A stretch of DNA of 64,000 bases from an uncultured Fibrobacterota bacterium (GCA_963753345.1 CAVWBU010000021.1:229839-293838); one strand, 5' to 3'. Shown: positions 1,556 through 54,697, counted from the stretch's first letter. Translations and numbers: made by a program. The notes: a model not told the origin generated them from the letters alone.

Positions 1556-1820
1556 GGCGCCCCGCTGCTACGCAGCGGCGGCCGTCCTTCCGGTCCACCC
1601 CTTCGGCCTCGGGCCATCTAATTTTAGAATGTAGATTGTAGAATGTAGATTGGAAATGCGAAAGATCGACAAAACTGTTTTCAATCTACAATCATCAATC
1701 TAAAATCTACAATTAAGAGTCCGGGCGGCATCCCGCTATGGCGGGACCTCCAGTCGCCCCTAACGCGCGGCAACAGTAATCTGTTCTGTCAAGTAGCAAC
1801 ACTTACGCTATGGGGATTTC
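1556..1820 (-). repeat. Structured dispersed repeat, module B, carrying a TGTAGAT heptamer hairpin insert
   Basis: Reverse complement reads ...cttgaca...gccgcgcgttaggggcgactggaggtcccgc-cata-gcgggatgccgcccggactctt[heptamer hairpin]agatggcccgaggccgaagg...ggggcgcc, matching the other module B copies. Confidence 0.85.
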
Positions 1821-1975
1821 TCATCAAGCAAGACACGGAAGTCCTGATTAGTCAAGAATGCGCGGATTGTGCAAGATTGCCGCTGCCACGCATTAGGCCG
1901 GACGGAGCCCTGCGCGGCCCTTGAGCCTGCAGAAAAAGCTCTTTTCTTGACTTGGGCGGTCAAATCCGTCTGCCA

Positions 1976-4240
1976 TCATTGCAAAATCGCCATTCTCAAT
2001 TTCACCGTATGTTTTCCACCCACGTTGACGCTGGCAAGGTAAACGCCGCGCGACGCGCCACGGCAGTTCCAGACAAGCGCAACTCCATTGCCGGCCAGGT
2101 TATCTGATAGTGCAGCCACCTGCTTTCCGAGGAGATTGAACACGGCAATTTCTACGCGGGTCGGGGCGCCCAAATTGAAAACAAAGTTGATTTGATCGCG
2201 GCCGGGGTTGCAATACGCTCTCACCGTTTCGGGAGCAACGGGTGCTTGCGCCAGAGCAACTCCGCTGGGCAAGGTGATTTTCGTCTTGTAAAGCCCGGTG
2301 CTTGTCGCGGCATACAACGAGCCGGCGCAGAGCGCATTGACGGCATTGAACCCGTTGGAATACACCTGCCAGGTGCTTCCCCCATCGACGCTTATATGAA
2401 TAGTTCCGTATCCGTCTGCAAAGCACAGCGCTTTCTTGTTGTCCACGGTCGTGGTAATGACAAAGGCCGGAATTTGCACCTGGGTGTTGATATTCGTCCA
2501 CGTCGTTCCCCGGTCGGCGCTGTGAAACAGGCCATTCGACATCGTGGCGATATAAATTTGGGCGGGGTCATCGGGATCGATAACGAGCGAAGTGACAATA
2601 TCCTTCGGGACCGGCATCTGCGTCCAGTTCAATCCGCCGTCAATGCTCTTATAGGCGCCCGTGGTGTTGTCGCTTTTTTGCTGGCAGAACTGGCCTTTGC
2701 CCGCATACAGGGTCAGCGTGTCTTGCGGATCAACGGCAATGAAGCTGATGACCGAGCCTGGGAAGGCGATCGGCTGCCAGGTGTTGCCGCTGTCAATGCT
2801 CTTGTACAATCCGTCATTGGGCCGCGGGGACGAGATGCCGCTGCCCACGCCCGCGTATACAACAGCACTGTTGCCGGATTCGAACGCGAACTTGAGCACC
2901 CCTCCTGAATTCACCGGCAGCGACGATAGAAGCCGCCATGTTTCGCCGTAATCATCGCTTCGTACAATCGCTTCCGCCATGTTTCCCATTACCTGCTGGC
3001 AGGCGATGACCGAAGCGGCATTGGACGGCGGCACAATCATGTCGCCCAGGCCCGCCCGCAATCCGTTCAATCCGAGCAAACGGGTCCATGAGGAGCCGCT
3101 GTCTTTGCTGCGGTAAAAATCGACGTCGCTTCCCGCGTAAAAAACATTTTTCTCAATGGGATTGTGATAGAGAAACAGGAACCGGACTCCCCGGATATTC
3201 GTGTTGGCATCGTGGAACGTAACGCCATTCGTGCTTTTGTAAATGCCATACCCGTTGGCATCGGCCAGGTAGATTTTGCTGCTATCACCGACAGGATCGC
3301 ACAGTCCATTTATCGGGCCGCTGACCGTCGAGTCAATGGCGCCCTGCAGAGTCCAGGTCTCTCCGGTGTCAACACTCCTATAGCAATTTCTTTCATTGAA
3401 GGCCAACAGCAGATTGCCGCCAAGATCCGCCATCATGACGGTTCTCATCCCTTGCGTACCCAGGGTGGCGTTGACCGCCACTGCTGACCACGTGGCGCCT
3501 CCGTCCATGCTTTTGAAAATAAGGGAGCGACCACCCGCAAAGACATGCAACGGGTTGTCCGGATCCACGGTCAGCGAATAAACCGGCGAACTCGCAAGGC
3601 CGAAATAGGACGCAGAAAATTCAGTCCAATCAGCTCCTGCGTTGGCGCTGCAAAAAATGCCGCCGTCCCCGTCATAATTTTTTTGCGCGGTGACAACGAT
3701 GTGTTCGGCTGCCATGGCAATGCGCGAAATTGCAAAGTCCTGCGGCAGCGTGTAAACCGCGCTCCACGTATTTCCGCCATTCGTGGTTTTATAGACATGG
3801 GCAGGATTGATCTGCCGGTCACTGGCATATGCGACGTTGGCATTGGCCGGGTCGCATGCGATTTGCTCCAATGCCACCGGCGTGCTTAATTGAGCCCACG
3901 TTGCGCCGCCATCCAGGCTTTTGCTGATTCCCAGCATGCTGGTTGCGCCGTTGACGCACACGTAAACGACATTGGCGTTGGCAGGCGAATAGGCGATTCC
4001 AGTGATAAGACCGCTGAAGTTGGGGACCTGCTGCCATGTCGCGGCGCCGTCTGTGCTCTTATACAGGGATTGAATGCCGCCGGCCCAAAGAACGTTATGG
4101 TCAAGAGGATTCATGGCCAGGCTCCACATCTGCCCGCCGAAAATATCGGCATTGGTCCACGAACCCATATCCGCCCCAAACGAAAAGGATCTCAAAAGCA
4201 ATAATGACGCCATAGAAACCAACATTGAATTCTTTTTCAT
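1976..4240 (-). CDS. Secreted BNR/Asp-box beta-propeller protein (VPS10/GH74-like fold) with a C-terminal T9SS/FlgD-like domain
   Basis: Signal peptide, many S-x-D-G-G-x-T-W repeats, and a C-terminal VFNLLGKQVA...WN......GVYLA segment. RBS ggaggg precedes the ATG at 4240. Confidence 0.8.
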   Translation of the reverse strand: MKKNSMLVSMASLLLLRSFSFGADMGSWTNADIFGGQMWSLAMNPLDHNVLWAGGIQSLYKSTDGAATWQQVPNFSGLITGIAYSPANANVVYVCVNGATSMLGISKSLDGGATWAQLSTPVALEQIACDPANANVAYASDRQINPAHVYKTTNGGNTWSAVYTLPQDFAISRIAMAAEHIVVTAQKNYDGDGGIFCSANAGADWTEFSASYFGLASSPVYSLTVDPDNPLHVFAGGRSLIFKSMDGGATWSAVAVNATLGTQGMRTVMMADLGGNLLLAFNERNCYRSVDTGETWTLQGAIDSTVSGPINGLCDPVGDSSKIYLADANGYGIYKSTNGVTFHDANTNIRGVRFLFLYHNPIEKNVFYAGSDVDFYRSKDSGSSWTRLLGLNGLRAGLGDMIVPPSNAASVIACQQVMGNMAEAIVRSDDYGETWRLLSSLPVNSGGVLKFAFESGNSAVVYAGVGSGISSPRPNDGLYKSIDSGNTWQPIAFPGSVISFIAVDPQDTLTLYAGKGQFCQQKSDNTTGAYKSIDGGLNWTQMPVPKDIVTSLVIDPDDPAQIYIATMSNGLFHSADRGTTWTNINTQVQIPAFVITTTVDNKKALCFADGYGTIHISVDGGSTWQVYSNGFNAVNALCAGSLYAATSTGLYKTKITLPSGVALAQAPVAPETVRAYCNPGRDQINFVFNLGAPTRVEIAVFNLLGKQVAALSDNLAGNGVALVWNCRGASRGVYLASVNVGGKHTVKLRMAILQ

Positions 4241-4405
4241 TTTTCCCTCCACGGGCAAACGTGTTTCGCGGTCAACGGGGCCTTAGCTGAGATCATACAG
4301 TCTCCCGCGATTATTGTCAACAGCGGCATCCTATCCGTCCGGTCTTATTTCGTTTGGACGGCGGCCTGTTCATTTGTTTGAAATAAATCGGTGTGCCACG
4401 ACGAT

Positions 4406-4424
4406 CACTTCGACAAGCTCAGTG
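4406..4424. repeat. Short CTTCGACAAGCTCAG-type repeat (second copy at 53219-53234)
   Basis: cacttcgacaagctcagtg here versus cttcgataagctcagc at 53219. Confidence 0.5.
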
Positions 4425-4483
4425 CAAGCCTTGGTCGTGTTCATGAAAGTTTACAAATGATGGCAAACAGCACTGATGGTCTT

Positions 4484-4725
4484 CGCGCCAGGGGCGACTG
4501 GAGGTCGTGCTGGAGCACGATGCTGCCCGGACTCTTAATTGTAGATTCTAGATTGATGATTGTAGATTGACAAAGACAAACTGGTCTATCTCTTGCATTT
4601 CCAATCTACATTCTACAATCTACATTCTAAAATTAGATGGCCCGAGGCCTGCGGCCGACGACCCTTGGAAGCACCCGAAGGGGTGGACCGGAAGGAGGGC
4701 TGCCGCCGTCTTCGGCGGGGCGCCC
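4484..4725 (+). repeat. Structured dispersed repeat, module B; inverted partner of 1556-1820
   Basis: cgcgccaggggcgactggaggtcgtgc-tgga-gcacgatgctgcccggactctt[heptamer hairpin]agatggcccgaggcc...ggggcgccc. Confidence 0.85.
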
Positions 4726-4836
4726 AATTTTTTTATTCATAATAGCAAAATTTGTCCGCCGAAAACTTATTTTGCCACTAGATTTGATCATGGTGCCGTA
4801 CCGTTCGCTTTTCTTTTTCTCGAAAGGAGACGGGAC

Positions 4837-6585: not shown

Positions 6586-6620
6586 GGCCGCTAGGGTTTT
6601 TGATGACCGCGGATCTTTAC

Positions 6621-6659
6621 AAAAAGGGGTTCTTTGCTTTCCGGCAAAGAGCCCTTTTT
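6621..6659. terminator. Bidirectional intrinsic terminator-like hairpin (near copy at 11407-11442)
   Basis: aaaaaggggttctttgc-tttccg-gcaaagagcccttttt. Confidence 0.7.
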
Positions 6660-6748
6660 ACCTATGTCCTGACTGCACCCTCTTTTTCTAAATTCTACAT
6701 TCTACAATCTACCTTCTACAATTATGAATGGTCAAGAGGCCGGGATTT
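6621..6748 (-). mobile_element. Degenerate att-like duplication of the tRNA-Ser 3' end plus its downstream heptamer repeats and terminator
   Basis: 6729-6748 tggtcaagaggccgggattt matches 11481-11500 tggcggagaggctgggattt at 16/20 positions. The adjacent tctacattctacaatcta repeats and the terminator are also duplicated. Confidence 0.65.
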
Positions 6749-7208: not shown

Positions 7209-7210
7209 TT

Positions 7211-11442: not shown

Positions 11443-11480
11443 GATTTTTCAATCTACATTCTACAATCTACAATTAAGAA

Positions 11481-11795: not shown

Positions 11796-12071
11796 ATGGC
11801 GAGAATCACAAAGGCAGAGTTGAGCAGGCTGCAGAAGACGCTCAAGACCGACGAGGCGATCGGCAGAAAGCTGGGGATCACCCGTCAGGCGGTTCATCAA
11901 TGGAGAAAGAAATACGGCGTGGAGTCGCGGTGGGACCAGAACCCGGAGCGCAACAAGAAGATGGTTTCCCTGTACAAGGCGGGCAAGACCGGAAACGAAA
12001 TTGCGGACAAGTTCGGACTTTCTTTGTCGCAGACGTATAGATTGATAGGCAAGGGCAAAAAGAAGAGATAA
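11796..12071 (+). CDS. Small basic tandem helix-turn-helix DNA-binding protein
   Basis: RBS ggagg; two HTH-like motifs (DEAIGRKLGITRQAVHQWRKKYG and GNEIADKFGLSLSQTYRLI). Confidence 0.75.
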   Translation: MARITKAELSRLQKTLKTDEAIGRKLGITRQAVHQWRKKYGVESRWDQNPERNKKMVSLYKAGKTGNEIADKFGLSLSQTYRLIGKGKKKR

Positions 12072-12127
12072 AGATAAATCCTCATGTGGGGGAAGATCAG
12101 CCTGTCTCAAAACCCAGTTTAAGAACT

Positions 12128-12263
12128 GGGCGCCTGCCTTCGGCACCGGTTCTCCTTCCGGTCTCGGCCACGGCCTCGGGCTGCCACGGCCCTATGGCCC
12201 GCAGGGCCGGGTCCGGGCAGCATCCCGCTCTAGCGGGACCTCCAGTCGCCCCTGGCGCTTGGC
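12128..12263 (-). repeat. Structured dispersed repeat, module B
   Basis: Reverse complement: gcgccaggggcgactggaggtcccgc-taga-gcgggatgctgcccggacccggccctgcgggccatagggccgtggcagcccgaggccgtggccgagaccggaaggagaaccgg...ggcgccc. Confidence 0.85.
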
Positions 12264-12326
12264 AGCGGGAATACTCCACAATTCTCATATGCTTGACTAA
12301 TAAGACCTTGTCTGGATATCTTTCCT

Positions 12327-12517
12327 GAATTCCATATGGCGCAAACATTGCTGCTTGACAGAGTAGATCTCCGTTTCCGCGCGTTAGGTGGACCGTAGGG
12401 TGCGCTGGAGCGCATTGCCGCCTGATCCCTCGCCGAAGGCGGTAGGGACGGGCGGCAACGAGGCCGAAGGGCCGAGCCCGGAGGGAGACCGACCCGAGCG
12501 AAGCGAGGGGAACGCCC
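12327..12517 (+). repeat. Structured dispersed repeat, module B (GGTGGAC subtype), back-to-back with 12128-12263
   Basis: gaattcc..tggcgc..cttgaca..ccgcgcgttaggtggacc..tgcgc-tgga-gcgca-ttgccgcctg..cgcc-gaa-ggcg..cgggcggcaacgaggcc..gagcgaagcgaggggaacgccc. Confidence 0.85.
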
Positions 12518-12535
12518 AACTCTTTTTCATATTTC

Positions 12536-14111: not shown

Positions 14112-14554
14112 GGATGGGGGAAGTATCCCCCTCGCTCCGGCCCGGCCGCGCCGCTTTACAAATCAGCACCCCGGATATACGCGTCCGGTCCTCCGCTACC
14201 CCCTCCTGGGTGACCCCCAAGAAGAGACAGTTGCAAGAATCAACCACCCGTGTGGGGGCACCCGCGAGGAGCAGTTGAAACGTTGAGAAGTTGAATAGTT
14301 CAAAGAAAGAGCATTGCTATTCATTCTGAGAATTCCGATTGGCGCAAGAACGGCAAATTTGCAGAATGTATTTCTTTTTGCCGCGCGTTAGGTGGACTGA
14401 AGGGTGAGCAAGGGCGAATTGCCGGCTGACCCCTCGCCGCAGGCGACTTGGGGCGGTCCGGCAACGAGGCCGACAGGCCGAGCCCGGAAGGAGACCGACC
14501 CCGGATATGTAGAGGCGTAGCGCGCTACGACGCTGCCTATCCGGGGGAACGCCC
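14112..14554. repeat. Composite structured element: module A + octamer repeats + linker + module B (with a GTAG palindrome insert)
   Basis: gggggaagtatccccctcgctccggcccgg...gggtgaccccc...gggggcaccc; gttgaaac gttgagaa gttgaata; gaattccgattggcgc...gccgcgcgttaggtggac...gggggaacgccc. Confidence 0.85.
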
Positions 14555-14677
14555 AAATTATATCTCTCTCCACTCTTCTTATCTTCTCCCAATCATTTTA
14601 CCCTTTATTATCCCCGTCCCTCATTTTACAATATAGCTTCGCAACAACATGCCTCTTCTTAAGGAATCGTCAATTCC

Positions 14678-23756: not shown

Positions 23757-23832
23757 ATGTAGATTGTAGATTGACGATTGCAGATTTCAAAAAAAATGGC
23801 CTCCAACTAATGACCAATGACCAATGACCAAC
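23757..23832. repeat. Two heptamer tandem-repeat tracts (TGTAGAT and TGACCAA) inside the efflux operon
   Basis: atgtagattgtagattgacgattgcagatt; taatgaccaatgaccaatgaccaac. Confidence 0.7.
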
Positions 23833-25910: not shown

Positions 25911-26402
25911 GGTGGGGGAGGTATCCCCCTCGCTGCGGCCCGGCCGCGCCGCCTTGCAAACCGGTAATCCGAATCTGCGCGTTCGGTCCTTCGCTACCCC
26001 CTCTTGGGTGGCCCCCAAGTGGGAGCAGCAGTAAAACCACACTTCTGTGTGGGGGCACCCGTGGAGAGCAGTTGAAAAGAAAAAGTGTTGAAACGTTGAA
26101 AAGTTGAAGCGTTGAAAAGTGGAAAATGCAAAGAAGAAGCGCTGACTCATTTGTTGTGGATACCAATTGGCGCGAGAAGAAGCAATTGACTGAACGAAAT
26201 TCCTCTGCCGCGCGTTAGGGGCGACTGGAGGTCCCGCTGGAGCGGGATGCCGCCCGGACCCGCCTTTTGTAGAGACGCAGCGTGCTGCGTCTCTACAAAA
26301 GGAATAGGGCCGTGGCGGCCCGAGGCCGCAGGCCGAGACCGAAAGGAGAACCGACCCCAAGTAGAGCCGCACGCCCGTGCGGCTCTACTTGGGGGAACGC
26401 CC
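25911..26402. repeat. Composite structured element A + octamers + linker + B, with two nested GTAG REP-like palindromes
   Basis: Same architecture as 14112-14554; palindromes at 26263-26302 and 26355-26394. Confidence 0.88.
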
Positions 26403-26568
26403 AGATTCACTTTTCTTTCTTCTTATTGCCGTTACCCAAATATGTAACGGATAACGCGACCCCGCCTCCTATTTCCCCCCAAAATCCCTCTTTGAGTTGT
26501 ATACTTAAGGGAGGAGAATTTTTCCGAGAGTCATTAACCTGTATCATTCGTCAAAGGGGGAGGGAACA

Positions 26569-27996: not shown

Positions 27997-28020
27997 CGCA
28001 TCAAGTACAACATGTGATTG

Positions 28021-28463
28021 GGTGGGGGAAGTTTCCCCCTAGGGTTCAGCCAACCGGCGTAATGTGGGGGGCGCATTCCAATACGCCCTTTTTATTTTAT
28101 GCGCCGGTTGTCTGAACCCATACCCCCTCGTGGGTAGCCCCCTAGAGAGTTGATTTGCGAGAAAGTTGCCTCAGCTGCGGGGGCACCGGGAAAGATCGTT
28201 GAAAAGTTGAATAGTTGAAATGTTGAAAAGTGGAAAATGCAAAGAAGAAGCGCTGACTTATTTGTTGTGGATACCGATTGGCGCGAGAAGAAGTAATTGA
28301 CCGAATAGAATTCCCTTGCCGCGCGTTAGGGGCGACTGGAGGTCCCGCCAAAGCGGGATGCCGCCCGGACCCGGCCGCTACCGCGGCATAGGGCCGAGGC
28401 GGCCCGAGGCCGGTGGCCGAGACCGGAAGGAGAACCGACCCGAGCGCAGCGAGGGGAACGCCC
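28021..28463. repeat. Composite structured element A + octamers + linker + B; direct copy relative to 25911-26402
   Basis: Shares a near-identical linker (gttgaaaagtggaaaatgcaaagaagaagcgctgact.atttgttgtggatacc.attggcgcgagaagaag) and the module B core. Confidence 0.88.
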
Positions 28464-28469
28464 AGATCT

Positions 28470-32323: not shown

Positions 32324-32571
32324 GGTGGGGGAAGTTTACCCCGTCGGGTACTTCCAAGGGTCGTCCCCCTCGCTGCGGCCCGGTCGCACTGATTTACGAG
32401 CAAGAATTCTGAAAGTGCGCGACCGGTCCTCCGGCGCTTTCCGCCCTTCCTGTTGGGCGGGCGCAATCCCCTCGTGGGTAGCCCCCCAGTGAGTTGGTTT
32501 GCGAGAAAGAAACATCAGCTGCGGGGGCACCGAGAAAGAGGGTTGAAAAGTTGACGGTTGACAGTTGACAG
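32324..32571. repeat. Module A of the structured repeat followed by GTTGACA heptamers
   Basis: ggtgggggaagtttaccc..cgggtacttccaagggtcgtccccctcgctgcggcccgg...gggtagcccccc...gggggcacc. Confidence 0.85.
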
Positions 32572-32587
32572 CAGGACAAAAGCAAGG

Positions 32588-32616
32588 TGTCATTGCGAGG
32601 AGTCTTCGACGAAGCA
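32588..32616. repeat. TGTCATTGCGAG...GACGAAGCA short repeat (second copy about 42911-42938)
   Basis: tgtcattgcgaggagtcttcgacgaagca here versus tgtcattgcgagcaagacgaagcaatc. Confidence 0.55.
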
Positions 32617-32798
32617 CCACGACTAGGACCGCACACAAAACTACAGGAGTAGTCGCGTCCGCGAATCTCCCGTGGTTTCTATCGCCATTGGGGTCGAATT
32701 CTCATTGATTGCAATTGATTGCTTGACTCGCGGGAGGCGAAAAGTTGCTTTTTGGAGGGGGAATACATAGTTTTTGGTTGAAATTGCGGGTAGGGCCC

Positions 32799-32875
32799 AT
32801 ATCCGCCGGGATATGAGCAGAAAAGAACGGAGCATCTATGAGGAATCAAAAGCCAAAACAGATTCCGAAGTTTAA
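32799..32875 (+). pseudogene. 3' remnant of a BrnT-family toxin gene
   Basis: Translates ISA-(one base missing)-RDMSRKERSIYEESK..., the typical BrnT C-terminus, and overlaps the brnA start. No 5' part is visible. Confidence 0.65.
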
Positions 32876-33149
32876 AACCGAAGATGAAGAGCGCGAGTTC
32901 TGGGCAGCCCATGACTCTGCGGAATACTTGGATTGGTCAAAGGCGAAGAAGCTGCGCTTCACGAAGCTGCGTCCCTCCGTGCGAAGCATTTCTTTGCGTT
33001 TGCCGGAAGCGCTTCTGGAAAGAATCAAAATACTTGCGAACAGAAATGATATTCCCTATCAATCTCTGATGAAAGTCTATCTTTCGGAACGTGTGGAAAA
33101 AGAGATTGTGGGAAAGCGGCTTGCAGCGCAGCACCATTGGATTTCATGA
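32838..33149 (+). CDS. BrnA/CopG-family antitoxin
   Basis: IPKFKTEDEEREFW..HD..EY.DW, ISLRLP and IPYQSLMKVYL. Confidence 0.85.
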   Translation: MRNQKPKQIPKFKTEDEEREFWAAHDSAEYLDWSKAKKLRFTKLRPSVRSISLRLPEALLERIKILANRNDIPYQSLMKVYLSERVEKEIVGKRLAAQHHWIS

Positions 33150-33284
33150 CGGCTAATATGATAAGCCGTTTGAGGTAATATTGGATGTGCCGTCTATTGT
33201 CCAATACATAATTAGCTGTACATAAACGTAGCAAAATGCATATTTCTTATAAATGACAAACGTGCATCCGGAGGCGACTCCCGA

Positions 33285-34082
33285 TTGGGCACAGAGAAAC
33301 AGACAAAATGCATTAGCCAGCATCAGTGGGATGCGCAGTTGAAAGAACAGCGCAATGAAACTGGTTTACCCGGATATTGGGAATCCTTGGCCGAAAATTG
33401 TAGTCAATGGGGTGCTGAGATTTCTGTGGGACCGTTTTGGATGGCAGCGACTAAAAACCTACCTGAATGGATCAATGAATTCCGCCTAAAATACGAAAGT
33501 CCCCTTCTTACTATGCCGGGTCTGCCGAATTTTGTTGGGAAGGGAATGGAACGAACTAAACAAAAACTTTACGAGCTTGCCATCAATGATAAACTGTTCA
33601 GAAAAAATGCTGTAAACCAGCAAGGTCCACCGATACCCATTCTTAATGATTTGGTTCGTACGCGAATTTCTTGCCAATACATTGATGGAGTCGAATTCAT
33701 TGCTAGCAAACTATTTGAGCTTGCGCGGCAGATGAATTTGACACCAAACAGATGCAGAGAGGGTCGTCTCGAAGGATACTTTGCACAGCATATCACATTC
33801 GCACAGCAGGTTTACTACCGATTTGCTGGTGGCAATGAACCGGCTACTGTCCTTTGCGAAATTCAGGTTGCCACAGACCTGTCTACTCGCATCTGGGAAG
33901 CAACCCACTTAGTATACGAAAAAGCAAGAACAACAGCAGACCATCCTGAGGATTGGCAATGGAACCCTAAAGATCCAAGATTTGTTTCTCGCCAGTTAGG
34001 GCACATGATGCACTTAGCAGACGGTCTGCTTGTTCAATTGAGAGAAGCCATCAACCAAATAAGAGAAAGAGGCTTAAAATGA
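33285..34082 (+). CDS. RelA/SpoT synthetase-domain protein (small alarmone synthetase-like)
   Basis: Motif order K..ERTKQK, DLVRTRI, GYFAQH, EIQVAT, WEATHLVYEK; TTG start after ggagg; AT-rich. Confidence 0.7.
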   Translation: MGTEKQTKCISQHQWDAQLKEQRNETGLPGYWESLAENCSQWGAEISVGPFWMAATKNLPEWINEFRLKYESPLLTMPGLPNFVGKGMERTKQKLYELAINDKLFRKNAVNQQGPPIPILNDLVRTRISCQYIDGVEFIASKLFELARQMNLTPNRCREGRLEGYFAQHITFAQQVYYRFAGGNEPATVLCEIQVATDLSTRIWEATHLVYEKARTTADHPEDWQWNPKDPRFVSRQLGHMMHLADGLLVQLREAINQIRERGLK

Positions 34083-34522
34083 ATATTGCAAACGAATGCA
34101 AGGCTTACGCGAGTATTTACGATTATGATAGACTAGTACAATTGCTTACCTATGCTCAAGAGCTTTCTCCTGAAGAGATTGCCGCCACTATTCCCTCAAT
34201 AAAGTTGGCGACAGACGGTCCTGCTTTGGCTTCCATATTTATTGTAACAAAGAATATGCTTGGTGAAATTAGAGTATCCGGAACGTCTTACGACATCGAT
34301 TTTGTCAATATTAATACGGTCCAGAATTATAGAATATCATCTAGCGAACACACTGTTGACAACGCTGATGGTACTAAGATCAGCTATCAGATCGCAAAAG
34401 TCAAATTTGTCCATTCACTGAGCTCAACCTTTACTTCTGAATTCGAATATGTTGGAATGGATCGCAAGGCGTGGCTTGCCAAGCTTATGAAAACAATCCC
34501 TATTAGTATCCTCTGTCAATAG
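34079..34522 (+). CDS. Hypothetical protein translationally coupled to the SAS-like gene
   Basis: ATGA overlap; same AT-rich composition; beta-rich with a C-terminal amphipathic helix. Confidence 0.7.
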   Translation: MNIANECKAYASIYDYDRLVQLLTYAQELSPEEIAATIPSIKLATDGPALASIFIVTKNMLGEIRVSGTSYDIDFVNINTVQNYRISSSEHTVDNADGTKISYQIAKVKFVHSLSSTFTSEFEYVGMDRKAWLAKLMKTIPISILCQ

Positions 34523-34692
34523 CGACTAATTGTTTTGTTTCATTTAAAACTATCAACAAACATCTTACATGCAGTTTAAGCTAAGGAAAAAACGCGAACC
34601 CCCAACGTCGATTTGCTCCTTTTCTATGCGTTCCGCCGGTTTTCCAGTTTTGTTAGCAAGAAATCGAAATATCATTTCTCCCGGAGCCCTCT

Positions 34693-34833
34693 ATGAAACC
34701 CCTTCTCGTCCTTCCATCCCTCCTGTCAATCATCGCGCTCTCCTTCTCCCAAACTCGCTCTTGCAGCGTGAGCGGCGGCGGCTTTTCGCCCCTTGGAAGT
34801 ACCCGAAGGGTAAACTTCTCCCCCAAAGCATGA
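34693..34833 (+). pseudogene. 5' stub of a secreted-protein gene (signal peptide only) running into a repeat end
   Basis: RBS ggag; MKPLLVLPSLLSIIALSFSQ..., then reads into the module A end and stops. Confidence 0.5.
34789..34828. repeat. Terminal fragment of module A, inverted relative to 32320-32360
   Basis: Reverse complement ctttgggggagaagtttacccttcgggtacttccaagggg versus ctttggtgggggaagtttaccccgtcgggtacttccaaggg. Confidence 0.8.
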
Positions 34834-35079
34834 TCTCTTTGCACGGTGATAGCTGCCTTTGCTAATCCTTGAACCTGCGCCAATAATTAAACGACTATAT
34901 GAATGATTTGGATTAAGGATGCAGGAAATGGTTTTCTTGCAGAAAACGATTTTTGTCGCTTATGCCGCCCGACAGAGTCCCAATAGCGATGATATATTGT
35001 TATTGAGGGCATTTGAAGGGCGGCGGCCCGGTGCGCAACAACCGTCACCAAGATGTTTTCATCCCACAAAGGAGTTTTT

Positions 35080-36469
35080 ATGCGCTACCGAATGGTAGTT
35101 GACTTGTTTTGCGGCTGCCGTCAATTTCCGGTTATATACATGAGCGCAATCTGCCCTCACCGGGAAAGTCCTGGATTATTATTCGAACCCTGTAGGCGGC
35201 GCATATGTACACCTGATGGAGCAGAACGTTTCCGACACCACAAAGAGCGATGGAAGTTTCGTTTTTTCCACCACGGCCGCAATGCGGGCAACGTCCGCTT
35301 CGGCGTCGCGGCCCATTACCGTGAGCAGGGGCGCGGTCGCGCTCCGGCTTGCCGGGCAAAGCGCTGTTGCGCTGGACCTCTTTGATACACGCGGCAGATG
35401 CGTTTCGGCCCTGTTCAAGGGAACCCTTCCGGGCGGAGATCATTCATTTACAATTGCACAGGAGCATGGCGCTACGCAGGTGTTGTTTCTAAGGGCCGTG
35501 ATTGACGGAAAATCCTCCGTGTTTCCCCTGGTTTGCGGAACCGGCAGTTCGATGCAGGCGGCAATTCCGCAAGCTGGTCACGGCGCGGGCGCGCTGACCA
35601 AGAGGACCGCGGACACGCTGGATGCCATTGAAGTCACCTGCAGCGGGTATCAGCCGACCGTTGTGCCGCTTTACGGAGGCGAACAGCAGATTACCATTAA
35701 AATTCCCGGCAACATAGGCCTTTCGTTTGTCTATATAGGAGGAGCGCCGATACCGGCAGTGAAATATGCGAAAATTAATGACACCAATGCGTTGCTTGCG
35801 CAGACCGTGACTGCCACTTTTGGAGACACGGTCTGGGTTCCTGCTCAAAACAACACCAGCCATCACCTAATGGTCACGACGTACGGCACGACAGGATTCA
35901 AGACCGGTGAAGGCGCGATAGATGTGCATGTTCCTGCAGACCGGGGAATAGTCGCACCTGTCATCATTTCCCTGTTTCCCCAGCCCGGCACGGCCCAGAC
36001 CGTAGCGGACCTGCGCATTACCGACCAGGTTTTCCCGTGGCAGGAGCAGGGGGGATCGTACTGGACCGGTCCCGCGGACAGCCTATGGGAGATTTTTGAC
36101 GGAGGAGCCCTCACGTATATCAACGGCGGACTTATCGACTGGATTTATCAGGGTGTGGAAACCTCGCCGGATTCCACGCGTCAGGCAAGTCTTTTTGTTG
36201 GGAATTACGGAACTGCACTCACGGCGACAGCGGAGTACGGTGCACTGAAAACAGGGTACTCCTACTTGATTCCAGTTGAAATCCCGGGATTTGACAGCTC
36301 GGTCGCGATCGCAGAGGTGATCGGGGGAGGGATCAAGGTGATGGCACATTTCAACAAGTTTTACGTGGAATTTTATTTGCAAAATTATGATGCCACGGAC
36401 ACGGACACCGCCCTGGCCGACGCCGTGACTCTGCTCTCGTGGTACCGGATGAGGATTGCGGGGCAATAG
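35080..36469 (+). CDS. Secreted protein with a carboxypeptidase-regulatory-like N-terminus and an internal FlgD/T9SS-like domain; 5' end frameshifted
   Basis: RBS aaggag and ATG at 35080. The 35216 frame extends upstream as AQSALTGKVLDYYSNPVGGAYVHL to a TGA at 35141. Confidence 0.6.
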
Positions 36470-36654
36470 GAGAATTGACGAAGTTGTTGAATCTTGGTCT
36501 ATTCGATCATCAATGAAGAAAATAAAGAGATCAAAGAGTTGGTAGGGGCTGGCCGCCCCTAAGAGCCAAGGAAAGGGCAAAAGACATAATTTATTGCGCG
36601 AAGCGCCACTACCTTACCCTTAAGAAATGAAATGACAAAATGCTTATTATAACA

Positions 36655-36800
36655 ACCCCCGGCGGCCAAAGCGCCGCCACCCCCTTGGAAAGGGGGACTT
36701 CCTCTCCGTAAACTTTCCTGTTGCAACCCTTGCGTGGTTTTTACCGTATAGCATCTCCCCGCAGGAAGAAAGTGACAAAGTAACAAAGTGACAAAGTTAC
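36655..36800. repeat. Palindromic GC repeat plus GTGACAAA octamer tract
   Basis: ccccttggaaaggggg hairpin; agtgacaaagtaacaaagtgacaaagttac. Confidence 0.55.
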
Positions 36801-36831
36801 GGAGTGAAACCACCGCAAATAGATTACTGTA

Positions 36832-36957
36832 CAACTGCTCTCCACGGGTGCCCCCCAGCCGAAGCATGTTCTTGCAAATCAACTTACTTGGGGGCCACCC
36901 CGGAGAGGGGAGTGCCGAGGACCGTCGGGCCGAGGCCGGGGGAGAAACTTCTCCCCC
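36832..36957. repeat. Module A in reverse orientation
   Basis: Reverse complement gggggagaagtttctcccccggcctcggcc..ggtcctcggcactcccctctccggggtggccccc...gggggcacccgtggagagcagttg; closest to the copy at 54263. Confidence 0.85.
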
Positions 36958-37044
36958 ATACGCATTCACTTCTCTAATTCGCAAACATAATTTTCTTTGC
37001 CCCACTCTTCCCCCTGATAGCAACGTATTTTCTTCACCCTACCG

Positions 37045-44307: not shown

Positions 44308-45174
44308 ACGGTTTTTTCTTTATTGACAAGCCCGCAGGCCCCACGTCGTTTGATGTGGTGCGGCAGCTGCGCAGGGCGTGCGGAGAAAAGACCGGCCATT
44401 CGGGCACGCTCGACCCGCAGGCAAGCGGTCTTCTGATTTGCGCGGTGGGCGACGCGACAAGGCTGCTGCCCTGCCTTCCTGCCGAGCCCAAGCGCTATTC
44501 GTTCGGCGTAACATTCGGCGCCGAGACCGATACGCTTGACAGTGAGGGAACCGTGGTCGCCGCCAGCGGCCGCGTTCCGCTTGAGGAAGAGGTGCGGGCG
44601 GCGCTTCCGAAGTTTACGGGCCGCGTCACGCAGACGCCGCCGCGTTTTTCGGCCGTGCGCGTGGAGGGAGAGCGCGCGTACGATCTCGCGCGCCGGCAAA
44701 GAGTATTTGAACTGAAAGAGCGGACCGTCGCCATAGCCTCTCTCGCGCTTGCGCGGTTCGATGCGCCCGAGGCGTCCCTCGACGTCACGTGCTCCGGCGG
44801 GACGTATGTCCGCTCGCTCGCACGGGACCTTGCAAAGTCTCTCGGAACGCTGGCCTTCGCATCGTTCATACGGCGGCTCGCCATTGGACCGTTTGCGGTC
44901 GACAATGCCGTGTCACCCGCGGCCGCGGCCAACGACCCTTCGGTGCACGTTGTGCCCGTGGCCAAAGCACTGGGGTCGGTCCCCTCGGTCGTGCTGGGTC
45001 CGGTGCAGCTCGAAACCGTAGGCGATGGGGAAGGACATCGCAATTGACAAGAGCGATGACCTGGTGATTGCTTATAACGGACAAGGCGACGTCGCGGCGG
45101 TACTCAAGAAAAGCGAAGGAAAGTATCATCCGGATAAGGTGTTTGTAAAACAAGTTGAGAAGTTGAGGAGTTGA
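44304..45174 (+). CDS. truB: tRNA pseudouridine(55) synthase; +1 frameshift near 45020, corrected stop at 45172-45174
   Basis: DKPAG.TS, GHSGTLDP.ASG and CSGGTYVRSL. The PUA-like tail GKDIAIDK...YHPDKVF continues in the shifted frame. Confidence 0.9.
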
Positions 45175-45405
45175 GAGGTTGAGAAGTTAAAGAAACGGCA
45201 ATCAATTTCCTGCGGATGCCGGTCGGCGCGAGAAGAGTAGTTTGACTTATGGGAATTCCGATGCCGCGCGTTAGGTGGACCGGAGGGTGAGCGAGAGCGA
45301 ATTGCCGGCCGACCCCTCGCCGGAGGCGACTAGGGGCGGTCCGGCAACGAGGCGAACAGCCGAGCCCGAAGGGAGACCGGCCCGAGCGGAGCGAGGGAAA
45401 CGCCC
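45153..45405 (+). repeat. Octamer tract + linker + module B (GGTGGAC subtype) between truB and ribF
   Basis: agttgaga repeats; gccgcgcgttaggtggacc...ttgccgg..tcgcc-gga-ggcga..ccggcaa...gagcggagcgagggaaacgccc. Confidence 0.85.
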
Positions 45406-45429
45406 ATATCTTTTAGAGTATTTATTAAT

Positions 45430-48959: not shown

Positions 48960-49235
48960 TCTTTGACAACAGCGCGCGGGTGCCCTGTCTGACAAATCTC
49001 CCTCCAACCCGTGTGGCCCGGATCTGCGATCCGGGTTCTTCTTCTGCGGCGTATGATCTTCAATCGGAATTCTATTGAAGGGCCACACCCTCGTGCCGCC
49101 AGGCGGTTGACACATGAACAAAGAATATTTTCAAGGAAAAAATTATCTCCGCGTGCTATATTACACGTGCAGGGAGAAGGTGGGATGGTCTTTAAACAGT
49201 TGGAGATCACCGTTTTTAAAAAAGGAGTTGTTACC

Positions 49236-50153: not shown

Positions 50154-50176
50154 GTGAAAATTGACGGCGAAATAAG

Positions 50177-50200
50177 AGGGCGCTTTAGGGCGCCCTTTTT
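50177..50200 (+). terminator. Intrinsic terminator
   Basis: agggcgc...gcgccct followed by a T-run. Confidence 0.7.
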
Positions 50201-50332
50201 CTTTTTGACTCCGATCCTGACCTTCTTACGGTCACATCGTAAAAGTCAGCTCTTGGAAATTGACTTTATTCAGGTCACATGGTAATTTGGTCATGATTCT
50301 TGGGTTGCCACAAAATAGAAATGGCGATTCCC

Positions 50333-50794
50333 ATGCCCAAAAAATCTCCCCCGAAAATAATCGTCCAGCGCCTGCCTCACGGAAACGGCCTGCCCCTTCC
50401 GTTGCGGATGTCCAAGGACGCCAGCGGCTGCGACGTTTCCGCCGCGATTGAAACCGACGTGGTGCTCGAACCTTCGGCGCGCGCGCTGGTGCCCACGGGT
50501 TTCTGCTTCGAAATCCCGAAGGGATACGAAGTACAGGTGCGTTCGCGCTCCGGCCTCGCGATAAAGCACGGCGTGTTTGTGCTCAATTCTCCCGGCACCA
50601 TAGACGCGGACTACCGCGGCGAGGTGAAGGTGATCCTTGCTAACGCGGGGAGCGCGCCCTTTACCATTAAGCGCGGCGACCGCATTGCCCAGCTCGTGGT
50701 GGCGCCGGTGGCGAACAATATTGACTTTGCGGAAAGCGGGTCGGTTTCAAAGACGGACAGAGGAGCGGGCGGGTTCGGGCATACGGGGGTGTAA
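50333..50794 (+). CDS. dut: dUTP diphosphatase (start may be 50321)
   Basis: [28 protein letters not shown] and [10 protein letters not shown]. Confidence 0.96.
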
Positions 50795-50797
50795 AAG

Positions 50798-50885
50798 AGT
50801 TAAAAGTTGAAAGTTGAAAGTGAAAAGAAAACCAAATTCTATTCTGGGTTCTAGCCTGAAACTTTCAACCTCCAACATCCAACTC
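50798..50885. repeat. GTTGAAA heptamer tract with an inverted degenerate counterpart between convergent genes
   Basis: gagttaaaagttgaaagttgaaagtgaaa ... actttcaacctccaacatccaactc. Confidence 0.6.
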
Positions 50886-50891
50886 GTTTCT

Positions 50892-51548
50892 CTATTTCCC
50901 TGATTTACGAAGATTTTCCACAACAGCGGTAAACGACTCCGGCACCTCCGCTTCAACCCTCTTCTCTTCTCCCGACAAAAGTTTGAACGTTATCTCCTGC
51001 GCGTGCAGCATCATGCGCGGAAACGCGGCCTGCGCCGCCTTATCGCCGTATAGCCTGTCGCCCGCGATCGGATGGCCGATGCTGTAGAAATGCACGCGGA
51101 TCTGGTGCCTCCGGCCGGTGAGAGGGTGCGCCTTCACAAGAGAGAAATTGCCGAGCTTCTCCGCCACCTCGTATTCCGTGGCGCTCGCCTTTCCGCGCAG
51201 TTCGTCCACGCCCATGCGGCCGGAACCGTACTGATGAATAGGCTTGTTGATAACGCCCCTTCCGTTGGCGGGCGTGCCGTGCACAAGGGCGAGATAGGTT
51301 TTCCTTATGGTATGTGCGGCGAACTGATCGTTGAGGCATTTATGTGCCCCTGCGTTTTTCGCAAACAGCATGACCCCGCTCACGTCCTTGTCGAGCCGGT
51401 GGACGACAAAGAGCTTCCGACCGTACTTTATTGACAGAAGGGAAAGAAGCGTGTCTTTCCCTTTTTCGCTACCCGGAATTGAGGTGAGGCCTTCGGGCTT
51501 GCACACCGCGAAAAGGTCGCTGTTTTCGAAGAGGATGGGAATTTCCAT
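50892..51548 (-). CDS. RluA-family pseudouridine synthase
   Basis: KP.GL, VHRLDKDVSG, TGRRHQIRVH and GHPI.GD..YG. Confidence 0.92.
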   Translation of the reverse strand: MEIPILFENSDLFAVCKPEGLTSIPGSEKGKDTLLSLLSIKYGRKLFVVHRLDKDVSGVMLFAKNAGAHKCLNDQFAAHTIRKTYLALVHGTPANGRGVINKPIHQYGSGRMGVDELRGKASATEYEVAEKLGNFSLVKAHPLTGRRHQIRVHFYSIGHPIAGDRLYGDKAAQAAFPRMMLHAQEITFKLLSGEEKRVEAEVPESFTAVVENLRKSGK

Positions 51549-51657
51549 TATTCAAAAATACAACAATGTGGTTACGGGAATTGCGCGATGCGATCCGAAC
51601 ACCACCGTTGCGCACCGATCCTTCGGAAATATTCCCCCGCGTGGAGGCAGAATGTTC

Positions 51658-52638
51658 TCATTTGGTCAACCATTGTCTCACAATATTCAGCGACGCCGTA
51701 TCGGATTCCAGGCGGAAATCGGGCTCCGGAGGCTTGAAGGCGTCGAACCACAGGAGCGCGCCTACGCACGGGTTGTCGTCCATGAACGAAAACATTCCGT
51801 GCAGCCATGCAGGCCTGCGGGCGTCCGAGGGACATGCGGTCTCGCAGATCCACAGAGGTTTGCCTATCCCGGCCAATCCTGTCAGCGATGAGCGGAAGAT
51901 GTCTTCGAATGATTCCCACGAATGATACGGGTCGTAGCGGTCTCCGTAGTTGTATCCGTCAAGCCCAATGATATCGACCGCGCTGTCTCCCGGATAGTAC
52001 GGCAGGATGTTGCTGATTACTGTCTGATTGCTCCATACCGCGCCGGGGCAGAAGATCCATTGCACGTTGGAGGCGTTCTGCAGGGCAAAAACCCGCCGTG
52101 CATGGAGCCATGCGGCGATAAACGGGGCCGGCCTGCCGCCCCAGGGAAACCATGTGCCGTTCATTTCGTAGCCGAACCTTATGTAAACGGGGGCGGCAAC
52201 CTGCCTCGCTGCGGCGGCGAACAGCGCAAGCGCGCTGTCCCATGCACCGTGTGCCACTTCGTCAAGCAACGTGTCGTTTGCGGCCGAATCGAGCGATAGC
52301 GATATCACGTTGATGCTCACGACGGTGGAAATGTTTCGCAAGGCGTTTGTGCTGACAACGGCAGTGGGGAAGGGGTCGTCGATCTGCTGATACCAGAGAA
52401 CATATCCCGGCTTGGCACCAAGCAGCGAGGTTATTGAATCCAGGGCCGGAGCATAGTCGCCGAAAAACGATTCCGAGAATATTCCGAAGCGGGAATTGTT
52501 GGGCGCAGAAGGGGAAGAGCTTCCCTTGTCGCATATGACAAGAGTAGGAGGCGGAGAGGAAGGAACGGTTGAACAACCGGCAAGGAGCGCAGTCAGCGTG
52601 GCGCAGAAGAAGACCGTGCGTGCCGCAACCTTATGCAT
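51658..52638 (-). CDS. GH26-like glycoside hydrolase lipoprotein
   Basis: Lipobox LLAGC; RFGYEMNG.WF.WG, YYPGD..VD.IGLDGYN and KPLWICE. Confidence 0.8.
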   Translation of the reverse strand: MHKVAARTVFFCATLTALLAGCSTVPSSPPPTLVICDKGSSSPSAPNNSRFGIFSESFFGDYAPALDSITSLLGAKPGYVLWYQQIDDPFPTAVVSTNALRNISTVVSINVISLSLDSAANDTLLDEVAHGAWDSALALFAAAARQVAAPVYIRFGYEMNGTWFPWGGRPAPFIAAWLHARRVFALQNASNVQWIFCPGAVWSNQTVISNILPYYPGDSAVDIIGLDGYNYGDRYDPYHSWESFEDIFRSSLTGLAGIGKPLWICETACPSDARRPAWLHGMFSFMDDNPCVGALLWFDAFKPPEPDFRLESDTASLNIVRQWLTK

Positions 52639-52763
52639 CCGGAACAATCCGCCTCTTGGTTATTCTGCGTTCTTCGTCAACCGCGAAAATTCTCCCGGCA
52701 GGCCTTGCGGTAAAGGGCGATTGGGAAGAGCACGACAAAATGGTTCATGGTGATTGATGGATC

Positions 52764-53129
52764 CTATCTGTCAAGACTCGATGGCGGTTTGCCAAAGAGT
52801 TTGGTGAGAGCGGCAATGATGGTTTCGGACACGTCCCCGGTCAGCGCCAATGCGCTTTCCTTGCTCTCCAGGTACAGGCGATTGAGCCTCCCGTCGAACA
52901 AGAAGTCCCATTCGTCGCCTTCGGGGCTGTGCCTTTCATCAATCATCGGCACCTTCAATTCGTCGAAATACTTTCTGATGCCGATCACCATAAGATCGTG
53001 GTCAAATGCCGGAATGATGGCGGCAATTTCTCGGCGATTGGGCCTGGTATACAAGAGATTCCCTTGCTGGTCGATCACTGAAAAATTACCTCCTCCTACT
53101 TTCCAGCGCAAATTCCAGGCGATTGCCAT
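52764..53129 (-). CDS. Hypothetical protein
   Basis: 121-aa ORF with plausible composition filling the gap between recognised genes. Confidence 0.55.
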   Translation of the reverse strand: MAIAWNLRWKVGGGNFSVIDQQGNLLYTRPNRREIAAIIPAFDHDLMVIGIRKYFDELKVPMIDERHSPEGDEWDFLFDGRLNRLYLESKESALALTGDVSETIIAALTKLFGKPPSSLDR

Positions 53130-53267
53130 ATTCTGATTTCTCGGAGTTTTCTCCTTGTCTTACGGGGCCCTATAGTGCATTTTCTTTCTTGAATTGTCTT
53201 TTTTGCGATTTCTGCGCGCTTCGATAAGCTCAGCACAGGACTCTGCGGTGAACATATTTTTTGCCGT

Positions 53268-54252
53268 ATGAAATGCATCGTCATGTTCTCCGGCGGGCTC
53301 GATTCCACCATCGCCGTGCACCTGCTCATGCGTCTCGGGTTCGACGTGCTTGCGCTCAACTACGTGCTGCCGTTCTATTCCGGGTTCGGCCTCTCCCACG
53401 GCGAAATCAAGGCCCGCGCCGCCGCGCTCAACGTGCCGTTGCGCATCGAGGAGGAGGGGCAGGAATACCTTGACATGTTCAAGTCGCGGAAGTTCGGGTT
53501 CGGCAAGAACGTGAACCCATGCATCGACTGCAGGATACACCGGTTCAAAAAGGCCGCGGTCATCATGGCCGAAACCGGCGCGTCGTTCATCGCCACCGGC
53601 GAGGTGGTGGGCCAGCGGCCCATGTCCCAGCGCCGGGAGTGCTTTGACATAATAGAAAGGGAATCCGGCCTGAGAGGCATGATCGTTCGGCCGCTGTGCG
53701 CCAAGATCCTCAAGGCCTCCATTCCCGAAGAACGCGGATGGATCAAGCGCGAAGACATGCTTGACTTCTGGGGACGAGGCCGCAAGGGCCAGATGGCCTA
53801 TGCGGCCGGGTTCGGTCTCACGTACCCGTCGCCCGCGGGCGGGTGCCTGCTCACGCATGTGCGCACGGCCGAGCGCTATGCCGACCTGGAGAAGAACGAC
53901 CCGGGCTTTTTCCCTCAACGATTTCAAGCTGCTTGCCTACGGCAGGCATTTCAGGATAAGTCCGAAACTCCTGTTTGTCCAGGCGCGCGACGACGCGGAA
54001 AACGAACCCATCGATTCGCTCCGCCTTCCGCAGGACACGCAGGTACTTCTAAGAGACATTCCCGGCCCGGTGGGACTCGTTCGAGGTGAGGGAACGGAAG
54101 AGGAGATGATGCTCGCCTGTTCGATCTTCGCAAAGTACACCCGCGAAAGGACAAAGGCTGTTAGTGCCTTGGTATTGACAAAGGGTGATGGGCAGCGGGT
54201 GGTTGAGGTCAAGCCGGCGAGCGAAGAACTGTGTGAAAAGTATAGGATTTAA
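53268..54252 (+). CDS. PP-loop tRNA thiolation-like enzyme (ThiI/MnmA-like with C-terminal extension); +1 frameshift at T5 53907-53911
   Basis: SGGLDS, NPCIDC, TGEVVGQRPMSQ and PSPAGGCLLT; continues as FKLLAYGRHFR in the next frame. Confidence 0.75.
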
Positions 54253-54260
54253 TCAAGACG

Positions 54261-54697
54261 TCGGGGGAGAAGTATCTCCCCCGGCCTCGGCCTCCTCGTT
54301 TCGCCTTTGGCGAACCTGCGGGGTCCTCGGCACTCCCCTCTCCTGGGTGCACCCCAAGTGGATTCAGTTGCAGAACCAGACTCCTGTGCGGGGGCACCCA
54401 GGTGGAGTAGTTGATAAGTTGAGAGGTTGAGAGGTCAAATCAAGGCCAATGTTTTACTACCTGAGGATTCCGATTGGCGCGAGAAGGAGTTCTTGACTGA
54501 TAAGACATCTGTTGCCGCGCGCCAGGCAGGACTGGAGGCCGCGCTGGAGCGCGGTGCCGCCCGGACCCGGCCCTGTGGGCCATAGGGCCGAGGCGGCCCG
54601 AGGCCGCAGGCCGAGACTGGAAGGACGGCCGCCGCCGTCTTCGGCGGGGCGCCCTTATTAGCTCGTGAGTTTTGAGGCCCCTGTACCTCTCCCCCGA
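54261..54697. repeat. Composite structured element A + octamers + linker + B (B ends at 54654) plus an extra inverted A-terminus
   Basis: tcgggggagaagta at 54261-54274 versus tacctctcccccga at 54684-54697; module B core gccgcgcgccaggcaggactggagg ccgcgc-tgga-gcgcgg tgccgcccggaccc. Confidence 0.85.

Follow-up and report, generated by a model that had tools for sequence, protein, structure and literature searches.

The stretch analysed here, referred to as the window, comprises 64,000 nt of one strand from an uncultured Fibrobacterota bacterium (GCA_963753345.1, CAVWBU010000021.1:229839-293838). It is ordinary chromosome, in which Pfam families identify nusA, infB, rbfA, truB, ribF, pnp, dut and lptD, an efflux/ABC operon and glycoside hydrolases. 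Between such genes lie repeated, highly structured elements built from two modules, A and B; all copies are intergenic. An initial reading of the DNA by itself (the sequence-only reading) had noted modules A and B and proposed that they form a non-autonomous mobile element or a structured nucleic-acid family. We find that the A-B loci are best read as one lineage-specific, non-coding, polar composite repeat family that is absent from catalogued RNA families.

The loci named in the sequence-only reading fall into families by direct-repeat search, and nine B copies are alignable end to end. A 46-nt degenerate B pattern has 8 matches in the window against 0 in 100 dinucleotide-preserving shuffles. 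A covariance model of module B, trained on five of the window copies, recovers all nine B positions that had been named (E 7e-26 to 1e-9) and, with filters off, adds one degenerate copy. A second covariance model, covering the 3' domain of module A, finds six of the seven A positions originally listed; the seventh, described as a partial copy at 34789, lies on the minus strand and is only a piece of an A 5' hairpin.

As had been anticipated, the family extends beyond the window. Species-representative genomes were scanned, and the copy number and taxonomic range given here are lower bounds. At least 55 loci lie outside the window; among the matches listed, 48 belong to one Chitinivibrionales metagenome-assembled genome (MAG), six to an uncultured Fibrobacterota MAG and one to a Fibrobacteres fen MAG. 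The copy survey covers the window plus 54 loci from these three Fibrobacterota MAGs (248 kb in total; L045 was dropped because it is contained in L046), with about 2 kb visible on either side of each locus. In this set the B model finds 73 copies and the A model 48 matches; these include one antisense counterpart of another match and one that a contig end truncates. Genes that flank the fetched loci have 86-96% DNA identity to a Chitinivibrionales MAG, which agrees with the assignment to Fibrobacterota. Hundreds of copies per genome are plausible. The family is known so far from Chitinivibrionales/Fibrobacterota genomes only, and blastn with one full element found nothing similar in 72,556 plasmid records or in 50,697 records from phages.

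The branched fold of module B

Module B adopts a five-helix fold of about 150 nt, whose 5' and 3' ends pair in a covarying closing stem, P1 (GCGYY/RRCGC). In the consensus, a long-range stem is interrupted by purine-rich internal loops (AGG, GACYGGAGG and GAAGG), three hairpins meet at a junction, and one more hairpin stands near the 3' end. The junction nucleotides are almost invariant, and several GGA and AGGAG motifs occupy conserved unpaired positions.

Across the alignment of 73 copies, standard pairs fill 91.1% of pair cells, whereas shuffles reach 75.4% and slid partners 35-49%, and compensatory changes on both sides occur in 35 of 45 pairs. Two positions that read TT or CC covary with AA or GG close to the 3' end (UA 49-55, CG 15, UG 1-7). 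Because this alignment was fitted to the model, we made an additional, structure-blind one with MAFFT alone, using the 34 of the 73 copies that lack long inserts, and folded it with RNAalifold. This regains the main hairpins as well as the closing stem (UA 22-23, CG 10-11), and 11 of 27 pairs are compensatory. Among the 40 top mutual-information pairs of the B alignment, 15 are predicted pairs and the rest fall in columns of predicted helices or their neighbours; the scan gives no sign of a pseudoknot or additional helix.

The compensatory stem changes claimed in the sequence-only reading are therefore borne out, as is its view that structure is conserved beyond sequence, since pairing is retained at a median pairwise identity of 62% over 153 model columns (overall range 45-93%). 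Such high pairing at low identity implies that the fold is of importance to the host, to the spread of the element, or to both. One of the proposed pairings, tggcgcg with cgcgtta or cgcgcca, has no covariation support, because tggcgcg is nearly invariant and its G pairs with C as well as with U.

Mismatches at paired positions are strongly asymmetric, with G.U at 86 versus A.C at 51, and G.A/A.G at 109 versus C.U/U.C at 26. Together with the fixed order and polarity of the modules, this excess of G.U and G.A indicates that one strand folds; the fold would form in one single strand. The folding strand is most likely RNA, and the U-rich tail behind B and a hairpin followed by a U-run at one copy, both described below, are most simply read as RNA features.

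Architecture of the A-B unit and its copies

Full units measure 328-515 nt (32 units with both ends defined) and follow a constant order: they open with an AT-rich 5' edge, continue through module A, 7-8-nt repeats in a C-poor run and a leader that is conserved and unpaired, and close with module B and an AANUCUUUYU tail. The A 3' domain lies 42-254 nt upstream of B on the same strand for 43 of the 73 B copies and is never found in the reverse order, and in the window and the 54 loci only four A copies stand without B. With the A model, the antisense of A loci scores 15-19 bits against 81-93 bits for the sense strand. At the sharply defined 5' edge, the hairpin GGGGGARGUAUCCCCC is preceded by an A-rich block (-17 to -10) and by YTWGGT (-6 to -1) in 41 copies, and the bases immediately before the element are loosely conserved only. 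The C-poor run behind A consists of GTTGARA and its variants. The leader, GGATNCCGATTGGCGCGAGAAG...TTGAC-N-GAATAGATTTCC, is conserved in sequence without covariation, and its TTGAC stands 26-27 nt ahead of P1 in 47 of 69 copies. Past B, the sequence reads A-A/G-N-T-Y-T-T-T, with at least five T in eight positions in 38 of 66 copies versus 11 of 66 at a control position.

Several of these features would suit a rather unlikely alternative, namely that the elements, or the B modules, are separate genes, each for a stable trans-acting non-coding RNA, such as a protein scaffold or sponge, with its promoter in the AT-rich block before A and/or in the leader before B and its terminator in the U-rich tail. 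The sharp edge and its two motifs, the leader with TTGAC at a fixed distance from P1, the U-rich tail, the GGA and AGGAG motifs at unpaired positions and an orientation independent of the neighbouring genes all agree with such a gene, and many stable small RNAs have paired 5' and 3' ends, as B has in P1. The promoter signals speak against it, however: no sigma-70-like -10 is seen at the right spacing after TTGAC, the promoter scan found nothing at the elements, the leader motif was not seen before other genes of the window, and the genes downstream start 10-40 nt after B, which leaves no room for a promoter of their own. It would also be unusual for one trans-acting RNA to have diverged paralogues by the tens to hundreds. 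More generally, neither the leader nor the A edge gave a convincing match as a promoter of the sigma-70, sigma-54, extracytoplasmic-function (ECF) or Bacteroidetes -7 type, and TAnnTTTG, with 16 occurrences in the window, is not above a rough chance estimate.

A protein-coding role for the A-B unit was rejected, as copies differ by 1-2-nt indels. A spurious 140-aa frame across two adjacent B copies (12097-12519) has only two database relatives, which cover 30-43% of the frame, and no Pfam family. The only gene found between A and B encodes a leucine-rich lipoprotein, at locus L012.

Three hairpin tips of B take inserts, of up to 125, 42 and 59 nt, which include inverted heptamer runs, GTAGAG..CTCTAC palindromes and a 32-nt sub-module. 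The last is found 19 times (with at most 6 substitutions): 15 copies are sense in B, three antisense in the A 5' hairpin and one elsewhere, with two sites in the window (4657-4688, plus strand; 32334-32365, minus strand) and 17 in the further loci. It looks like a small nested insert able to sit in either module. Eight perfect or near-perfect GTAGAG..CTCTAC palindromes were found (two in the window, six in the loci), all in or beside the slots of B; none in this set is free-standing.

The copies in the window are collected in the table.

Table. Elements of the A-B family in the window (CM, covariance model; TRF, tandem-repeat search)
Feature	Coordinates	Strand	Parts	Evidence
Full A-B element	14112..14558	+	A 14112-14284; octamer run 14269-14304; leader ~14328-14374; B 14375-14558	CM, TRF, sequence
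Full A-B element	25911..26406	+	A 25911-26081; (GTTGAAAA)n run 26070-26126; leader ~26157-26201; B 26202-26406	CM, TRF
Full A-B element	28020..28467	+	A 28020-28208; (GTTGAAAA)x5 28198-28237; leader ~28268-28312; B 28313-28467	CM, TRF
Full A-B element	54261..54658	+	A 54261-54420; octamer run 54405-54435; leader ~54464-54508; B 54509-54658	CM, TRF
A 3' domains of A-B elements	14193-14284, 25991-26081, 28117-28208, 54330-54420	+		CM
B-only element, truB-ribF gap	45152..45409	+	(AAGTTGAG)x4.6 run 45152-45188; leader; B 45258-45409	CM, TRF
B, left half of back-to-back doublet	12124..12268	-		CM, sequence
Leader and B, right half of doublet	12325..12521	+	B 12371-12521	CM
B without recognisable leader	4473..4729	+	slot 1: long hairpin of inverted heptamer runs 4538-4570 / 4602-4633	CM, TRF
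B with doublet-type leader	1551..1776	-	slot 1: heptamer-run hairpin 1621-1652 / 1681-1713	CM, TRF
Degenerate remnant of B 5' part	1880..1945	+		weak CM match (16.5 bits, E 0.14), sequence
Module A without B	32324..32571	+	3' domain 32461-32552; heptamer run 32541-32571	CM, TRF
Module A without B	36769..36966	-	3' domain 36825-36915, then (ACTTTGTN)n run 36769-36797	CM, TRF
Isolated A 5' hairpin fragment containing sub-module	34789..34825	-		sequence comparison with 32324-32366; missed by both CMs

Of the four full elements, the first carries the GGTGGAC subtype of B with a long slot-2 hairpin, the second holds two GTAGAG..CTCTAC palindromic hairpins in its slots (26269-26296 and 26361-26388), and the fourth has the CC/GG variant of stem P1. 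For the third (28021-28466), the folding energy is -190 kcal/mol against -163.5 ± 6.3 for shuffles (z -4.18). The B-only element ends 21 nt before the ribF start codon. In the doublet (window 12100-12521), two B subtypes stand back to back about 100 nt apart, an arrangement that recurs in L015, L016 and L040 with unrelated flanks; the 3' end of its minus-strand copy merges into a canonical terminator hairpin with a U-run (about 12100-12126, minus strand), and its plus-strand copy ends 15 nt from the stop codon of a convergent AIR-synthase-like gene. The remnant at 1880-1945 is probably the decayed partner of the 1551-1776 copy. The antisense sub-module at 32334-32365 is held by the 5' hairpin of the A module at 32324.

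The two A modules without B enclose, in inverted orientation (32324-32552, plus; 36825-36966, minus), a low-GC stretch (32324-36966; 0.43-0.52 versus about 0.57 elsewhere), which contains a BrnA/CopG-type antitoxin gene (32838-33149), several open reading frames (ORFs) without a family and the A-hairpin fragment. Possibly this stretch is an island that was inserted, or became captured, between elements.

Tandem runs of 7-8-nt units also occur without A or B, at 6686-6720, 11450-11474, 23758-23786, 23809-23831, 50798-50825 and 57486-57505, all intergenic and built from units such as TTCTACA, CAATCTA, TGTAGAT, AATGACC, AGTTGAA and GTCAACA. They often lie directly past stop codons or beside the tRNA, and some have an inverted partner with which they would form a long hairpin (for instance at about 50850-50880). 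The TAACTGA heptamer repeats of Beggiatoaceae, cyanobacteria and Bacteroidetes (PMC4679880) are likewise intergenic runs of 2-6 copies near gene ends. The likeness is confined to the repeat run of the A-B unit and to the free-standing runs, and the units here differ (GTTGARA, TGTAGAT, GACAAAGT). The comparison is an analogy that does not extend to A or B themselves.

Known families, mobility and turnover

The sequence-only reading could not match the element to a known RNA, and the Rfam scans agree. The 4227 models of Rfam 15 were used, among them those for riboswitches, ribozymes, group I/II introns, HEARO, GOLLD, ROOL, OLE, tmRNA and 6S. Against the whole window, at the gathering threshold and at E<=1, these return only a tRNA and one chance miRNA-like match; against one full element at E<=10, they return six chance-level matches, the best at 21.8 bits versus a gathering threshold of 40. 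In titles and abstracts of the literature on Fibrobacterota structured RNAs, REP/MITE and multicopy repeats, we found no description of such an element.

Several familiar classes were considered and rejected. A transposable element of the miniature inverted-repeat type (MITE) is not supported, as the elements are without terminal inverted repeats or target-site duplications. An integron attC array does not fit the irregular spacing (0.1-17 kb), the presence of both orientations, the flanking housekeeping genes (nusA, infB, truB, pnp, lptD) and the lack of an integrase in the window. A CRISPR array does not fit copies of 150-500 nt that are 45-93% identical and have genes in between. For an IS110 bridge RNA or an IS200-IS605 omega-RNA, no cognate gene is found in 225 ORFs and no loops match the flanks.

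A REP sequence is a single 20-40-nt hairpin with a GTAG/CGTC head and a RAYT partner. In contrast, the A-B unit is 328-515 nt long and of fixed polarity, and it contains a five-helix junction and unpaired bases that do not vary; nothing RAYT-like was seen among 82 window and 143 flank ORFs. The GTAG head of the palindromes at B tips recalls classical REP sequences, and the two B copies that stand back to back are reminiscent of the inverted REPs paired in a REPIN. As to broader likenesses, the REP/BIME and REPIN repeats of proteobacteria (see PMC3337134, PMC3733652, PMC3184786) are likewise GC-rich, intergenic, high-copy and stably folding, and they lie in mosaic clusters, often after genes and within operons.

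In the A-B unit, terminal inverted repeats are lacking, the fold is branched and covarying, and there is no sequence relation to BOX, ERIC or Correia elements. BOX elements (boxA-boxB-boxC, Streptococcus pneumoniae), ERIC/IRU and Correia elements are modular, enzyme-less non-coding repeats of 100-300 nt with variable internal sub-units, transcribed with neighbouring genes; they are essentially long imperfect palindromes or inverted-repeat elements. A third group, comprising HEARO/IscB omega-RNA, TnpB omega-RNA (PATE) and IS110 bridge RNA, consists of large, ornate, multi-copy structured non-coding units, often without a protein gene, whose families have neither inverted repeats nor target duplications; OMEGA systems are the subject of a review (PMC13565253). 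The A-B unit resembles this group in these respects, yet Rfam, which includes a HEARO model, is silent, and neither IscB, TnpB or DEDD genes (225 ORFs) nor flank-matching loops are found.

In an unlikely reading, the element is a non-autonomous transposon that moves as a folded single strand, a PATE- or REPIN-like derivative of an IS200/IS605-, IS110- or RAYT-type system, with the enzyme gene at another place in the genome. Its two ends would then be A and B, the latter perhaps serving as a guide-RNA scaffold of the omega-RNA or bridge-RNA kind. The high copy number and intergenic location are as expected for such an element, as are the strand-specific fold, the fixed order of both end modules, the nesting of palindromic and 32-nt sub-modules in hairpin tips in either orientation, and the position of elements at the ends of several short MAG contigs (e.g., L001, L003, L020 and L049). 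The absence of terminal repeats and duplications would likewise be typical. An inverted-repeat search of four full elements gave internal hairpins only, and no target-site duplication was found at the 32 full elements, where the longest shared flank word averages 5.5 nt versus 5.14 ± 0.18 nt (maximum 5.61) for mismatched pairs.

The search for an enzyme speaks against such a transposon. As the sequence-only reading had stated, the window holds no cognate enzyme: Pfam analysis of its 82 long ORFs shows no transposase, recombinase, reverse transcriptase or nuclease partner. Specifically, none of the 82 window ORFs and none of the 143 flank ORFs has a DEDD, OrfB/TnpB, Y1/HUH or HNH/IscB domain, reverse transcriptases are equally missing from both sets, and no enzyme gene lies between A and B in any copy. 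The mobile genes among the 143 flank ORFs are only two IS5-type transposases (DDE) and one integrase, at unrelated positions. Flank-to-body complementarity (6.31 versus 6.41 ± 0.18 for cross-pairs) and identity (6.03 versus 5.94) show no excess, which argues against bridge-RNA-like loops, and the loose conservation of the bases just before the element is a further point against transposition of this kind, as is the silence of HEARO and all other Rfam models.

Recent copies are lacking as well. The nearest same-genome neighbour of a B copy is 80% identical in the median and 93% at most; the copies are old. In sum, of the two parts of the original proposal, the structured nucleic-acid family stands, whereas mobility is not borne out by terminal inverted repeats, target-site duplications, near-identical copies or a recurrent enzyme. 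The fetched loci include no synteny between MAGs that could show empty sites.

Two orthologous loci give a view of how the elements change. L036 is the ortholog of 14112-14558; its flanks and A are kept, B is of the other subtype (87 of 150 positions identical), and an extra repeat block is present. At L017, the ortholog of 54261-54658, both modules are replaced. Module replacement at these two loci, between the window genome and a related MAG, points to turnover; it would also suit the transposon. The A module retained at L036 is identical at 144 of 151 positions, compared with 83% and 87% at third codon positions of the two neighbouring genes, and an identity above that of third codon positions suggests constraint in place.

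Genomic context and possible roles

The 3' end of B often lies 3-60 nt from the next gene, and elements interrupt usual operon pairs such as gltX-glnS (L024), lptC-lptA (L032) and truB-ribF (window). From this tight position at gene ends, together with the conserved orthologous A and the U-rich tail, one could propose that local duplication gave rise to fixed, non-mobile elements, each a cis-regulatory leader or terminator for a single gene beside it. We regard this as improbable. The 143 flank ORFs belong to many unrelated Pfam families (tRNA synthetases, lipopolysaccharide transport, glycoside hydrolases, biosynthetic enzymes), none of which recurs beside the element; both orientations are present, modules are swapped at orthologous loci, and the same doublet is found between unrelated flanks.

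The reading that we tentatively place first, possible rather than probable, is that the elements are structured repeats that fold as RNA, reshuffled by recombination between copies, that affect transcript boundaries and whose junction is bound by a factor encoded elsewhere. The fold would form in RNA transcribed with or between neighbouring genes, and the invariant B junction would be a recognition surface for that factor. Spread and reshuffling would proceed mainly via recombination or gene conversion between copies, with transposition rare or ancient. The stable structure and U-rich tail would mark transcript boundaries through 3'-end protection or processing between genes, a role that would resemble that of REP/BIME, BOX and ERIC in other bacteria.

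A number of observations sit uneasily with this proposal. The first group concerns transcript boundaries. By our crude gene calls, which were trained on Pfam-positive window genes, B lies between co-directional genes in the sense orientation 21 times and antisense 13 times (convergent 18, divergent 9, and 12 without a called neighbour on one side), so that orientation is not tied to the neighbours, which fits poorly with an mRNA element that acts purely in cis. At several loci B ends 10-40 nt ahead of start codons; in such positions, or within operons, it cannot be an efficient terminator. For intrinsic termination, a U-run that begins about 4-6 nt past the last stem is less than ideal, and a terminator scan around two elements found 6 versus 3.3 ± 1.9, not enriched over shuffles. 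The second group concerns the fold and its conservation. The invariant junction and leader exceed the needs of a simple stability element. In the A 3' domain, covariation is weaker (77.4% paired versus 72.3% shuffled, with A.C exceeding G.U). Cell counts in the B alignment overstate independent events because many copies come from one genome, the constraint in place is seen at one orthologous locus, and it is RNA rather than single-stranded DNA that we infer as the folding strand.

A more far-reaching possibility, which we consider doubtful, is that A-B is the folded component of a new mobile-element system, as a guide or recognition RNA or a single-stranded end, with its enzyme encoded elsewhere in Chitinivibrionales genomes, or else a multicopy, ornate catalytic or ribonucleoprotein RNA class of about 400 nt. 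The invariant B junction would then serve for catalysis or binding, whereas the hairpin tips could expand freely. The family could provide a lead to a partner protein or a mobility mechanism, much as HEARO RNAs preceded the discovery of IscB. If, on the other hand, the element only stabilises or punctuates transcripts, a REP-like solution would have arisen separately in a distant phylum. Repeats of the dispersed, structured kind are known from a few well-studied phyla, with none described from Fibrobacterota in the literature searched, and what is unusual among them here is a branched, covariation-supported core with invariant unpaired bases inside a fixed two-module unit of about 400 nt. The analysis yields an RNA family ready for annotation, offers a reason for some assembly breaks in these MAGs, and provides dozens of diverged paralogues per genome as natural data for structure modelling.

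A possible binding partner is a 91-aa double helix-turn-helix (HTH) protein (HTH_23/HTH_28) encoded beside the B doublet (11796-12071, plus strand), with paralogues of 47-57% identity near elements at L013:3000-3284 and L019:2595-2864. Its 34 homologues are short DNA-binding proteins with varied labels; the few labelled by organism all come from Chitinivibrionales/Chitinispirillales MAGs. The protein is weakly similar to the IS630 transposase N-terminus and to the CRISPR-repeat-binding protein Cbp1. It is a lead only, and its placement relative to the elements is inconsistent.

Elsewhere in the window, genes for a HicB-family antitoxin and a BRO-N domain protein lie in a region of lower GC (60537-61407; 0.47-0.49), which suggests a prophage or mobile remnant. 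A 39-nt unit repeated 2.7 times within a PEGA-domain gene (59554-59660), and 84-94-nt units about 262-264 nt apart in an fn3-domain gene (62340-62854), are ordinary coding repeats.

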